Origin: Eledone cirrhosa
Taxonomy: Eukaryota
Assembly: GCA_964016885.1 (NCBI GenBank)
Contig: OZ024742.1
Span: 259,470,001 to 259,534,000, forward strand
Reading direction: 5' to 3'
DNA length: 64,000 nucleotides
A program made the position numbers and the translations under genes. Shown here in pieces: positions 5,896 to 59,855 of this stretch. How positions within the stretch are numbered: position 1 is the stretch's first letter; each line of letters opens with the position of its first letter. The notes under the pieces were generated by a model. It was not told the origin of the DNA. It made no database searches and was given only the letters and a program-made list of their open reading frames with translations.

Positions 5896-6400
5896 AATGA
5901 AGGAATTGTGGTAAGGAACCAGATGGACCATAACGCACCAAAGTACTCAAAACTTAGGGCAGTACAGTGAGTAATAGGAACAAGTATGACCCCGACGAAG
6001 AGCTCAAGCCGTTTCGACGGCTATTTCTGGACTAAATAAGAATTTTTAGCCTGGTAAATAAATAGCCGAACTTCTCGGGGGGTATTTCCTTATATGGGAA
6101 GATAGTAATTGTCAAGGGGATTGGTCAAAAATTTGTGTAAAGACAGATGAATCTACCATGGCATTTGGTGGGAGGTAGGGGTGGCTGAACTTGCCGGTAG
6201 AACAAAGAGGGAGAGGGGGATACCCAGTCAAGCGTTGAAAGTGAAATTTATACAGCAGATTCTAAGGATAGTGTATTAAAGGTCGAGAAAAGTGTACTGG
6301 AGAAGTGGAGGGGGTGAAAGATTAGGTAAATCAGAAGGGAGAAAAAAAAACATTATAAAAACAAGGAGAAAATAAATCGTCGGGGTCATACTTGTTCCTA
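5896..6400 (-). mobile_element. Fold-back PLE-like family B copy
   Basis: Shared AAYGAAGG...GACCCCGACG..GAGCTCAAGCCGTTTCGACGGCTA block; 6378-6400 is an inverted copy of about 5976-5997; TA flanks. Confidence 0.8.
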
Positions 6401-6556
6401 TATATATATATATATACACACATACATAAATATATGTATGTGTGCTCGTATATATGCATATATATATACACATACATTCACACGCACACGCGCGCGCACA
6501 CACACACACACACACATATATATATATTAATATATATATATTTATATATATATGTA

Positions 6557-6800
6557 TGAATGAAGTAATTCCGTCGGAAAGGTCCAGGAAAAAAGAGTGC
6601 TCTATGTAGGTTACAGAGCTTAATAGTTATGTAAATAAACAGCATAAGATAATTATTTCATTTACCAGTGGTTTCTTGAAAGCAAACAAAATTTGCTTTC
6701 AGTCATCAGAATGAAACAATCTTGGTGTATTTATTGACAGTGGATTTTAAAAACCACTGGTAAATGAAATAATTATCTTATGTTGTTTATTACATAACTA
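6557..6800 (-). mobile_element. Short fold-back element with hammerhead
   Basis: Inverted arms 6624-6674 and 6751-6800; TA flanks. Confidence 0.8.
6659..6713 (-). ncRNA. Type I hammerhead ribozyme
   Basis: CAUU-CUGAUGA-C-UGAAAGCAAA/UUUUG/UUUGCUUUCA-A-GAAA-CCACUGG-UA^AAUG. Confidence 0.82.
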
Positions 6801-6858
6801 TATATATATATATTAATTCAAAATATTAACAAAATAGATATTCTTGTGATCAATTATA

Positions 6859-6921
6859 TTTTATTATACATATTTCAGAGGTACTGAGTTAAGTTCAACA
6901 GTACGTCCTCATCAGATAAAA
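6859..6921 (-). ncRNA. Type I hammerhead ribozyme
   Basis: UUUUAU-CUGAUGA-GGACGUACUG/loop/CAGUACCUCU-GAAA-UAUGUA-UA^AUAAAA. Confidence 0.82.
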
Positions 6922-7485
6922 TAAAATGATACATGACATACCCTGACATAGTAGATGGTTAAGATTCAATCAAGGTGGTCTTAATCAAGATATATATATA
7001 TATATTAATCAACCCAGTACTTATATTTTCGACTATGGTATTTATTTTATCGCTCTACTTTTAAAAAATCGCTAATTTATGAGACTATAAAAATAATAAA
7101 CATAGTCACAAACAGGCAGGTATATGTAGGCATCGTATATGACTTTATATACAACTCTATCATGATTCATACTATGTTAGTAGTACTACTAATTAATATC
7201 AGCCAAAACATGCACGCACTATATGCAAATGAACTACTCAAGATTACTTACGGGCAAAATAGCTTAGTTTTTTCTCAGTACAAAATGAGTAAACGTCACT
7301 GGAGATGGATTTAAAATGTCCTTAAACTCTAGTGCCTGGCCTTCTCACACGGTCAATGGGATACCTGTGACATCATCACATAAAACATTATAACTTTTAT
7401 ATATGTTTATTATACATCAACATATTTCATATGCGTCCATATACATGCCTACTACTATATCTGTATAAATATATATATATATATA

Positions 7486-56295: not shown

Positions 56296-56346
56296 TATAT
56301 ATATATGTGTGTATGTATATATATATACATATAGATAGATAGATAT

Positions 56347-56533
56347 AATTGTTTCTACTTTTGGCACAGGGCCAACAATTCCCCAGTAAATTACTAATAC
56401 TTTATTTTATCGACCCCGTAAGGATGAAATGCAAAGTTAACATTGGAAGAATTTGAACTCAGATCATAAAGGGCCGTAACTCTATGATGCAAAGTATGGC
56501 GTCCGACCCTCTACCGATACTGCCAATTCACCG
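56347..56533 (-). mobile_element. SINE family 1
   Basis: Full-length match. Confidence 0.85.
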
Positions 56534-58444
56534 CGTTTATATATATATATATATATTTATGTATGTATGTGTGTGTGTGCGTGTTTGTGTGTGTGTGTGC
56601 GTGTTTGTGTGTGTGTGTGTGTGTATGTGTGTGTGCTTGTATATTTTTTTTCGTTATCTTTATTATTTTATGCAGAAATCTCTCATTTTCCTTTCAAAGC
56701 AACTCGCATCTCATAAAACGAAATAGATGCTGCTTCTCTCAGTTTCAGACCAATTCACAGAACAGCTTATCAATCTTGACTACTTTTCACAACCAAAAAC
56801 ATTATTAGATTTACTGCGCTGCTGTGTATTGCTAGAAACGGAAATCTATTTGGAATTACTCCGAGATTCATAGATCACTATCAAAGACCATAAGCGTTAA
56901 AAGCTGGGCGGCTTGAAGCATTGTTTGCACTATTAACTATCATCTTGATATTAAAGTGTCGCCGTGCTATCGGCTTCTATTCCTTAATACATATCTTCAA
57001 TAATGCGCAATCAAATATCATACACCATTTTGCATTTTTTCGTTATCATTAAACATACACGTACGCACAAATACACACACACACATATAGACACATATAG
57101 ACACATGCACACATATACATATATACACACACACATATATATATATAAAGAGAGAAAGAGAGAGAGATAGAGATAGATGGATAGAAAGAGAGAGAGACGT
57201 ACATTTAAATGTGTATATATATGCGGTATATGTGCATCGATAATTTATACACGTATGTATAAAACATATACGCACACAAATTTATACATATATATATGTG
57301 TGTATATATTAATTTTTTTTTACTTGTTTGGTTTCTTATTTCCGTATTTTAGATTATAGAATGAATGGAACCACCACTTGACATGATCAGCTATCTCTCT
57401 AGAGTAGTTTCCTCTAGTAATATGTCTTAATCGTATAATCCACGTTCTTCCAGAAAGTTCCATGATTTCCCAGGAGGTTGCAATAAAGCAGAACACTATT
57501 TTCCGTGGAAATGCTGTTATTGGCGCCATTTTATCTAAATGAACACTCATTGCACTATTTTGGCGCCATATAGTCAACTTATATGCTTGACCACGCAAAG
57601 CTATTTACTGGTAGTTAGCAGTATGGTGGACACCACATGACCGAATGGTTAAGAAGTTTGCTTCAAAATCTTTATGTCCAGGTTTCGATATCAACGCGTG
57701 ACATCTTGGCAAGTGTCTCTTCCGATAGTTTCGAATCACCAGTGACTTTTGAAATTTAGTCGGTGGAAAATGTTACGAAACCCATTGGATTTAGCGTGCC
57801 TGTAATTCATTAAGCCTGTCTTCACATACAATAAATCACACTGGATCTCCCTGATAATTACTTCAAAATTATATGTGTTTCTGGGATGATCAGTTACTTT
57901 ACGTTAATTTCATGAGTAGGCTTTTCCGGTGAAAGGACAACTTCAACACTGATCATCGAAACCGACGTTGACCCATTTCATAGGCAACACATTACTACTT
58001 GACTATGGAAAGTTATACAACTGTGTGTTAGTAGTAGATTGGAGTGTTTGTGAAAAGCTAACAACCAATGAATCGGTGACAGGATGTCGAGGGGAGGGCT
58101 TCAGTTTATTATATTCAATGCCGAAATGTGAAGAATAACATGTTGATTTTGTTGTTGTCGGTGTTGTTACTATTAGGTTTTCCTGTTTATTTATTTGAGA
58201 GATTTTACAGCCTCAGAGCATTACTTAAGAGTAGTTTTCTGATTCTTTGCTTTCTGAGTTCGAATCCCGCCAATGTGAACTTTTCTGTTTGGTAATATAA
58301 ATTACTATACACTTTTCTTTCGCCTAAAATTGTAATCATTGTTTATTTATTTAGTTATTTTACTCTTTTAATATTTCCAGTCATTAGACTGCACCATTCT
58401 TGGGTATCACTCTGATTAAGTCGATGAAAGCTACCCGAGTATTC

Positions 58445-58646
58445 ATAGAAATGGCTTCTACAGGACTAGAACTGTTTCATTCGAAGGAAATTATAAGGGA
58501 TTTCCTGATGATCTCCTGATGATTTCCTTCGAATGAAACAGTTCTAGTCCTGTAGAAGCCATTTCTATATTAAATGTTGTATATACCCTACTAATGTATT
58601 GAGTACCTCACTTACTGTGGCTACTCTCGATTGGACCCGGGACTCA
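58445..58646 (+). mobile_element. Fold-back family D copy with HHR (58512-58558)
   Basis: CUGAUGA-UUUC CUUC GAAU-GAAA-CAG UUCUAGUC CUG-UA; 58445-58487 is the inverted arm; the tail matches 7486-7552 reversed. Confidence 0.82.
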
Positions 58647-59647
58647 TATATATATATATATGATCAGGGAAGTATCTGACAGAGGTTAATCATCTTAATT
58701 AATTACGATAGACAATTTCTGTAATTTTAGCCTGTGAATCTGCAATTAGAGGGAAAACATTCATTAAGCGATAGCTATTTAGACTGCTTAACAATGAAAT
58801 TGTGCCTCTCGGGTGACACGCGTATGGAATAGCTTTCTTTTAAAGTACTCTAATGTGATCTTCACTATAGTCAATTCTGAGCCTTATTTGAACATATTGT
58901 TCGACGCTCTGACAAGTTTCCTAGCATTGGATGTTATATATATATATATATATATGTGTGTGTGTGTGTGTGTGTGTGTGTGTGTGTGTGTGTGTGTGTG
59001 TGTGTGTGTGTGTGTGTGTGTGTGTGTGTGTGTGTGTGTGTGTGTGTGCCTGTGTGCCTGTGTGTATGTTTGTGTGTGCGTGTGTGTAATATGGAGGGAC
59101 GTGAATATGAGCACTTGCCTGATGATCCTATGAGTATACAGGTTAAATTACATAGTAACAATATCACAGCCATAAAAATGTATATATATATATATATATA
59201 TATATATATATATATATATCTCTATATTTTAATATATATATATATATATATATATAAATATATATATATATATATATATATATATGTATATATATATATA
59301 TATGTGTATATACAAGTAGGTATGTATATACCAATATCTATAACTATATATATATATATATATATATATATATATATATATATATATATATATATAAATA
59401 CATATTCAGCGAGAATCGTATTTCGGCTGGTAGAAACAGCGAAACGAAACGCAAAATCGTAGAAATGCTGGCAAGCGCTCCAATAGTTAAGACTAGCGCT
59501 AAACAATATGTTAAAACGCCATACAAACTGAAAAGTGGTCAAGAAGGCATTAACCACCTAAGCCAAAAAACAAGTCAAGCTAACCAGGTCAAACAAAATA
59601 TATATATATATATATATATATATATATATATATATATATATATATAT

Positions 59648-59855
59648 AACGAAGGAAATGTGGTAAGTAACCAGGTGCACCATAACGCACCAAAGTACTC
59701 AATACTTAGGGTAGTAGAGTGGGTAATAGGAACGAGTAGGACCCCGACGGCTGAGCTCAAGCCGTTTCGACGGCTAATTCTGGACTAGAATTATCCGTCC
59801 AGAATTAGCCGTCGAAACGGCTTGAGCTCAGCCGTCGGGGTCCTTCTCGTTCCTA
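59648..59855 (-). mobile_element. Fold-back family B copy
   Basis: Arms 59727-59785 and 59797-59855. Confidence 0.9.

Follow-up and report, generated by a model that had tools for sequence, protein, structure and literature searches.

How do Penelope-like elements (PLEs) come to be inserted as two head-to-head arms, one of which lacks the tail of the other? This question is raised by a stretch of 64,000 nucleotides (nt) from Eledone cirrhosa (assembly GCA_964016885.1, contig OZ024742.1, positions 259,470,001 to 259,534,000), hereafter the window. This 64-kb window has a G+C content of 35%, much (TA)n, and many short fold-back repeats, among them copies of the three families B, C, and E. The original prediction, made from these letters alone, was that the tail-less inverted arms of each family stop at a fixed base beside (TA)n while the fold point varies, and that both nicked strands of a TA target prime reverse transcription, one at the tail end and one at an internal TA. 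In the present study, we found that such an insertion probably arises when both nicked target strands prime their own complementary DNA (cDNA) at two fixed internal sites of the same source element. The data support this integration rule as a testable variant of twin priming, newly for PLEs.

The anatomy itself is not new. A one-sided tail with an inverted arm is published for PLEs (PMC8557442, PMC3846280), which the original prediction had not recognised in these families. The elements are new members of known clades, and the feature corresponds to the tail already known from PLEs, which are telomerase's closest mobile relatives. Elements of the Neptune, Hydra, and Naiad clades likewise target (TA)n and have an inverted, 5'-truncated copy and a tail at one end, although their tails measure 30-40 nt and those studied here 43-98 nt (PMC8557442). 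The same paper names the formation of inverted structures an unresolved problem, and inverted together with tandem insertion is also left open in PMC11167929. Inverted repeats of variable size are described in Drosophila (PMC2377424). We did not find a rule of one start site per strand stated for PLEs in the literature, although older papers and the figure supplements of PMC11167929 may hold it; the available portions of PMC4209133, PMC13282606, and 10.64898/2026.07.22.740005 contain nothing bearing on the mechanism of PLE integration.

We sampled about 1.1 Mb of the 3.0-Gb genome assembly, in loci labelled L###. For C, 99 loci were chosen by coding content, and positions are given as the distance from the tail end of the window copy. 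The terminus of the tail-bearing arm is called the long end, and that of the tail-less arm the short end. All 11 arm ends named from the window were found within 1-3 bases, the usual ambiguity beside (TA)n. Four B arms end at TTCCTA next to (TA)n at positions 6400, 9455, 49440, and 59855, and a fifth does so at 30672 on the minus strand; the shorter arm at 47300, an exception, likewise ends at TA. The C ends at 25862, 34438, and 55995 and the E ends at 27413 and, on the minus strand, 56017 are also present. The range of arm lengths noted at first, 23-531, was recovered, with the longest arm of 531 nt being 100% complementary to its partner and the shortest about 23 nt long.

Genome-wide, the predicted two peaks of end positions were observed, and a broad spread was not. 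The fixed, family-specific end holds as two sharp zones, except that the long end of C consists of three neighbouring sites and not one. Among 179 end calls from the 99 C loci, 89 fell at -41 to -48 (75 exactly at -41) and 68 at +2 to +18 (38 at +17, 18 at +2, and 7 at +4), while 20 continued into a tandem unit and 2 lay elsewhere. An overshoot of the BLAST alignment was considered for the +17 end and rejected, as +17 is the commonest long end. In B, 95 of 113 matches were followed by (TA)n; 37 of these ended at -77, 56 at the long end, and 2 elsewhere, so that 93/95 ends lie at two sites 80 nt apart, both of which are TAT. The same two sites account for 23 of 25 B ends in loci that had not been chosen for B. 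The tail measures 80 nt in B, 43-58 nt in C, and about 63 nt in E, the range across all families being 43-98 nt.

At all C start sites the element reads TA, TAT, or ATAT, and all of them fall within the first 30 codons; both B and C elements read on past the tail. Both ends are therefore internal start sites and not ends of the RNA. Accordingly, the earlier placement of one primer at the end of the RNA was not supported: the B and C sites are internal and in the first codons of the frame. Because the sites are internal, 3' rapid amplification of cDNA ends need not show two RNA ends. RNA folding between the two start sites gave no structure common to B and C.

The fold point generally varies, as predicted, but many E copies share a fixed one and C shows a hot spot. 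The E fold centre was identical in 26 of 30 query-selected loci, with 328 exact matches genome-wide, and 13 of 180 C arm 5' ends lie between -351 and -372, immediately following a run that resembles TATA. The B copies at 9397, 30733, and 59790 fold nearly alike (reference positions 136-141), which suggests that B has a 5' hot spot like C and E.

The two kinds of end are strictly paired. Among the coding-selected C loci there were 75 head-to-head joins, 15 of which were unresolved (they ran off the locus or were rearranged), and all 60 resolved joins combined a short end with a long end. About three quarters of the sampled C loci carry an inverted arm. For a check based on motifs, the first 100 short-end and 90 long-end (+17) motifs on C1 were listed and paired, which gave 26 mixed pairs, one long/long pair, and no short/short pair. 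We fetched 23 of the mixed pairs (of the other three, two had already been counted and one was excessively long), together with the long/long case and 16 of the 74 unpaired short ends. Among these 16, a long-end partner was present for 7, another 4 stood alone, and 5 failed to match the C reference. Overall, 90 of 91 resolved head-to-head C insertions had one short and one long end. For B, a partner could be resolved at 19 of 33 loci selected by the tail, and every one of the 19 partners ended at the short site.

Both arms of an insertion come from one donor, because donor variants are shared within insertions. The arms of C insertions differed in 5 of 254 diagnostic comparisons, versus 26% between insertions, and at site -357 none of 43 pairs was discordant (15.3 expected). 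Discordance in B was 15/167 (9%) within insertions versus 39.5% between them, and the E arms agree on a two-state variant wherever both could be typed. These data fit one RNA as well as two RNAs from the same donor. Microhomology of at least 3 nt was present in 35 of 66 direct C joins (BLAST-derived), versus 4.6% by chance, and 24 of 90 C joins carried added bases, some of them copied from nearby element sequence. Two joins near the -351 hot spot (L021 and L239) contain long added T/A runs, possibly due to slippage of the reverse transcriptase (RT) on a short stretch of A close to the 5' end of the RNA.

At every start site, TA-like bases match the target. Interrupted (TA)n targets were repeated on both sides of the insertion at 5 loci, versus 0.25 in shuffles, and none of 2,000 shuffles reached 5. 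Divided by class of long end and read at one register, the target was duplicated at 6 of 10 informative +17 loci and 2 of 3 in the +4 class. The size of the duplication is bounded at 11-12 nt by the bases that are or are not repeated (L133 and L145 versus L143, L150, L121, L135, L138, and L157). A direct duplication combined with inward growth of both cDNAs implies a pair of 3' overhangs, which is what twin priming requires of the cut. At six loci (L121, L135, L138, L157, L007, and L130) a G interrupts (TA)n at the same position just outside the duplicated stretch; this shared position may mark what the endonuclease tolerates.

The reach of the two arms bears on the alternative of fold-back self-priming, in which cDNA started at the long site snaps back and is copied to the short site, and a later lopsided deletion of the centre lengthens either arm. 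Self-priming, on an antisense template, is the proposal for inverted PLE junctions in PMC3846280, where it is argued in the Discussion. Fold-back predicts that the tail-less arm is never longer than the tail arm. In 90 C pairs (the 60 above and 30 added by hand from the C1 sample), the tail-less arm was the farther-reaching one in 45 and the tail arm in 37, and the two were within 10 nt in 8. Simple fold-back cannot produce the 45, in which the excess is as much as 3.9 kb in young, nearly identical copies; in L028, for example, the tail-less arm extends to -3971 and its tail-bearing partner to -52. Five long-end arms (L149, L228, L232, L246, and L257) are shorter than the tail and have no sequence in common with their partners. 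Although the B loci had been selected by the tail arm, 5 of 19 B pairs had the longer arm on the tail-less side. The E fold, a natural palindrome with one unpaired centre base, gives an undeleted centre. The centre base of 30 loci taken by pattern came from the tail-less arm in 16 and from the tail arm in 6, with one short/short case and 7 unresolved; 16 of 22 resolved copies are thus at odds with self-priming, as a tail-less strand cannot template the tail. This pattern fits two cDNAs annealing by their palindromic ends. A first E sample had suggested that the centre is always derived from the tail-bearing arm, an effect of query bias that was gone when loci were taken by pattern. Finally, 20 of 26 unpaired C copies end at the short site, which indicates that this site primes alone.

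Some observations in the same data favour self-priming and count against two separate primers. Near-perfect palindromes are in excess (the 8 of 90 pairs within 10 nt, versus 0.9 expected), and in the pooled samples the lengths of the two arms show a weak correlation (rho 0.23, p 0.03), as they would under fold-back. The palindromic fold of E is fixed, and the junctions carry microhomology. The arms always come from one donor, and the shared variants fit fold-back equally well, or mismatch repair in the intermediate. We read the palindrome excess and the length correlation as both cDNAs running off one RNA 5' end, at a presumed start site of the RNA. Self-priming seems to us an unlikely source of these insertions.

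Several further points weigh against two primed cDNAs with one site per strand. The pairing has exceptions, namely one C insertion, which we checked, that is long/long, and among E palindromes two that are long/long and one that is short/short. An inverted partner is absent from the 26 unpaired loci among the 99 C loci, the other 6 of which end at the long site. The target duplication rests on about 10 loci; it was found at none of 3 informative loci in the +2 class, in none of 7 B insertions, and in 2 of 4 E insertions, and L232 and L244 suggest longer or slipped repeats. In vitro, the choice of start site was not seen to differ between the strands, nor was homology to the cut DNA seen (PMC11167929).

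A second alternative is that both arms begin at the same start site and that the endonuclease then trims the tail off one end during resolution. This accounts for one tail per insertion. PMC8557442 traces the tail to resolution by the endonuclease, and recognition by the fly enzyme is reported to depend on the tail (PMC11167929). However, TA-like bases stand at both ends, target interruptions replace element bases at both ends in a primer-like manner (L133, L145, and L158), the 11-12-nt duplication flanks both sides, and the start sites found in vitro coincide with the two boundaries of the tail (PMC11167929). We regard trimming as quite improbable. An artefact, by fold-back chimeric long reads or by later expansion of (TA)n at an internal TA that shortened one arm, is hardly credible: palindromes beside microsatellites assemble poorly, and the junction in the window was not spanned by short-read contigs (the repeat was skipped in the search), but outer flanks are mirrored in just 2 of 60 insertions, which argues against chimeric reads, the ends differ by a fixed tail, the target duplications are direct repeats, and one internal TA per family is used among many.

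The core of the nicked-strand proposal, duplicative twin priming, is thus supported by five tests (strict pairing, either arm being longer, microhomology, the 11-12-nt duplication, and TA-like start sites), whereas its primer at the RNA end is not. We envisage the following course. The endonuclease would make a staggered cut, 11-12 nt apart, leaving two 3' overhangs. Each overhang would pair with 2-4 bases of RNA, the first overhang at the short site and the other at the long site. A pair of RTs, probably within one complex, would copy toward the RNA 5' end and usually stop independently; with a single RNA for both, the RT that trails must displace the cDNA of the one ahead. The 3' ends of the cDNAs would then anneal by microhomology, each priming the second strand of the other. 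Where both cDNAs run off the same RNA 5' end, a near-perfect palindrome would result; such run-off would account for the hot spot at -356 in C and for the fixed E fold.

More tentatively, with somewhat less than even confidence, we propose that duplicative twin priming is the normal route of PLE integration. An asymmetric complex of two RTs would act on one RNA, with one fixed site for each strand of an 11-12-nt stagger, strand displacement, and mutual priming of second strands; the tail would reflect the spacing of the active sites, and self-priming would be wrong for these clades. The observations give biochemists a set of rules to test: a single start site for each strand, a longer arm on either side, one donor, a stagger of 11-12 nt, and TA pairing at both sites. 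These rules favour two primed cDNAs over the published self-priming and supply a mechanism for the second strand. They also explain the abundance in this genome of long palindromes within microsatellites, which could be mistaken for miniature inverted-repeat transposable elements or microRNA hairpins. Separate priming by both cut strands, if true, would settle how PLEs make inverted insertions.

Among the closest known systems is PAc, a Penelope/Poseidon PLE of Anolis carolinensis, whose protein cuts and extends both strands in vitro and whose two internal start sites flank the tail (PMC11167929, 2024); an AlphaFold-predicted dimer is also described there. Like C, PAc has the RT and, C-terminally, a GIY-YIG endonuclease in one frame, start sites near the frame start, an AT-rich target, and tandem units. 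That paper leaves the later steps open and does not connect the start sites with inverted arms. In the present elements, a single site per strand serves each insertion, with a TA match of 2-4 nt, and by their motifs B and C fall into other clades. The Penelope families of Adineta vaga also have an inverted pseudo-long terminal repeat (pseudo-LTR), a one-sided tail of 31 nt, duplications of 8-10 nt, and palindromes at the junctions (PMC3846280). Their repeat spans 12 codons, or 22 with the tail, compared with about 9 and 22-28 in C. Few copies are described there, and the self-priming model is disfavoured here by the tests of arm length and centre base. Twin priming of L1 is similar in that two target ends prime on the same RNA, microcomplementarity joins the products, and the target is duplicated (10.1101/2024.08.27.596794). 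L1, however, uses a poly(A) tail and a variable internal site, its inversion is a side route, and its arms barely overlap (duplications in 17%, median 22 nt). The elements studied here have no poly(A) tail, two fixed internal sites 43-98 nt apart, and an arm overlap of up to 3.7 kb. The route of B, C, and E works like twin priming but is not its L1 form.

C is a young family that retains intact frames and whose insertions number in the thousands. The end of the frame within the window copy at 54254-55995 gave 150 scored genome matches, nearly all at 97-99% identity, and several copies elsewhere have intact frames of 1,216-1,217 amino acids, to which the window fragment is 99% identical. Exact motifs were counted 2,039 times genome-wide for the short end, a count that includes related families, and 1,517 times for the +17 end. 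The C frame is one open reading frame (ORF) that contains an RT (DKS, YVDD), a linker finger of the form CX4CXXC, and, C-terminally, a GIY-YIG domain (VY..YIG) with two cysteines inside it. An asparagine-rich insert of about 150 residues precedes the RT (L009:2742-6374), as in rotifer Penelope elements (PMC3846280). The unit of 4,116 nt occurs in tandem, with 20 read-through junctions, and the frame begins within the terminal repeat, so that partial tandems form pseudo-LTRs that hold the ORF start. Pfam and Protein Data Bank sequence searches gave no match for the C protein, distant homologues carry PF00078 and PF01541, and a profile search gave a bacterial RT as its sole match. The best named homologue, from Octopus vulgaris, is 68% identical. 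In an AlphaFold model (predicted local distance difference test score 91), the top 6 Foldseek matches were all TERT structures (best E value 1e-9, template modelling scores 0.3-0.4); by this structural likeness, and not from a tree, the modelled C RT appears closest to telomerase. A hammerhead-like core lies at -295 in C and is absent from the B and E stretches scanned; no hammerhead was among the Rfam matches listed (150 of 363). Neptune marks are present in C (a CX2-5CXXC linker finger, a CCHH motif, and a DKG-like motif), and by the motifs in PMC8557442 C is a PLE of apparently Neptune-like type. The clade names of both B and C rest on motifs, not on a tree with named references.

Long B copies run into frames for RT and GIY-YIG with a CxCX5C linker and no CCHH (L165, L166, and L175; partial frames). 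Beyond the tail the B frame has the motif RLRWR (RWK-like), and it has the Hydra-clade marks CxxC and CxH near the end as well as the (TA)n target. To judge from these marks, B is a PLE of the putative Hydra clade type; no intact B copy was found in the sampled loci. A second Hydra-like family, with its own fixed end flanked by (TA)n and read-through copies, was seen in L216, L218, and L222. The E unit is about 215 nt long and has the same end anatomy as B and C. No coding partner of E was found. The sequence upstream of E in L114, a candidate partner, actually belongs to another Hydra-like family, in whose TA flank E sits. By its shared anatomy E works like a non-autonomous PLE, of which it is a candidate member. 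Among seven more window families, D, I, J, and K have two end positions 63-93 nt apart in few copies, H has a sharp short end at -98, and in A and M the two-site end pattern was not seen.

Table 1. Copies of families B, C, and E and their parts in the window
Feature	Position	Strand	Remark
B insertion, tail-bearing arm (tail about 5897-5974) and 23-nt tail-less inverted arm, end 6400	5897..6400	-	
B near-palindrome, short arm end 9455	9261..9455	-	
B near-palindrome in reversed orientation, short end 30672	30672..30874	+	
B copy, inverted arm of 13 nt ending about 50 nt before the usual site, at TA too	47140..47300	-	
B palindrome, arms about 465 nt, short end 49440	48436..49440	-	
B near-palindrome, short end 59855	59649..59855	-	
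Older C insertion, long arm split by a family A copy (25427-25577), short end 25862	25264..25862	-	
Older C palindrome, fold about -295/-299 beside the hammerhead-like core, short end 34438	33903..34438	-	
Young C copy, long-end arm with ORF 3' end, 3' region, and 41-43-nt tail	54254..55464	-	
C PLE protein, C-terminal part with CX4CXXC finger and GIY-YIG endonuclease	54807..55464	-	
Hammerhead-like core (CUGACGA, stem II, GAAA) in C pseudo-LTR	54525..54549	-	motif match only
C short-end inverted arm, 531 nt, 100% complementary to 54295-54825	55465..55995	+	
E palindrome, common fixed fold centre about 27264, 63-nt tail on the left, short end 27413	27052..27413	-	
E insertion, other fold point, short end 56017, tail on the right	56017..56294	+	

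The window contains other insertions of similar form. One at 529-2397 is another fold-back PLE insertion with a GIY-YIG fragment (1865-2296, Pfam E value 0.0009), and its ends match the two-site pattern, about 87 nt apart. More one-tailed fold-back families occupy 7486-8493, 6560-6798, 10060-10677, 42370-42855, and 58445-58660, with tails of 63-98 nt and TA-like bases at the short ends. (TA)n also harbours palindromic insertions at 39913-40073 and 47435-47926, the latter with no obvious tail on either side. Family A, a repeat of 190 nt, is very abundant (119 matches in 1.1 Mb), is also nested within C copies, and has a single fixed end at (TA)n without a second end peak. In the window it lies at 2511-2730, 2937-3150, 3972-4152, 22089-22828, 25427-25577, 26391-26577, 50560-50700, 56345-56534, and 62176-62360. 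An Rfam scan of the window gave only sub-threshold microRNA-like hairpins among the matches listed (150 of 363). Two decayed L1/Tx1-like non-LTR elements lie at 16983-19882 (plus strand) and 51862-53604 (minus strand; RVT_1 E value 5e-10), and intact-looking relatives of 851 and 1,137 amino acids are present in L165 and L169.

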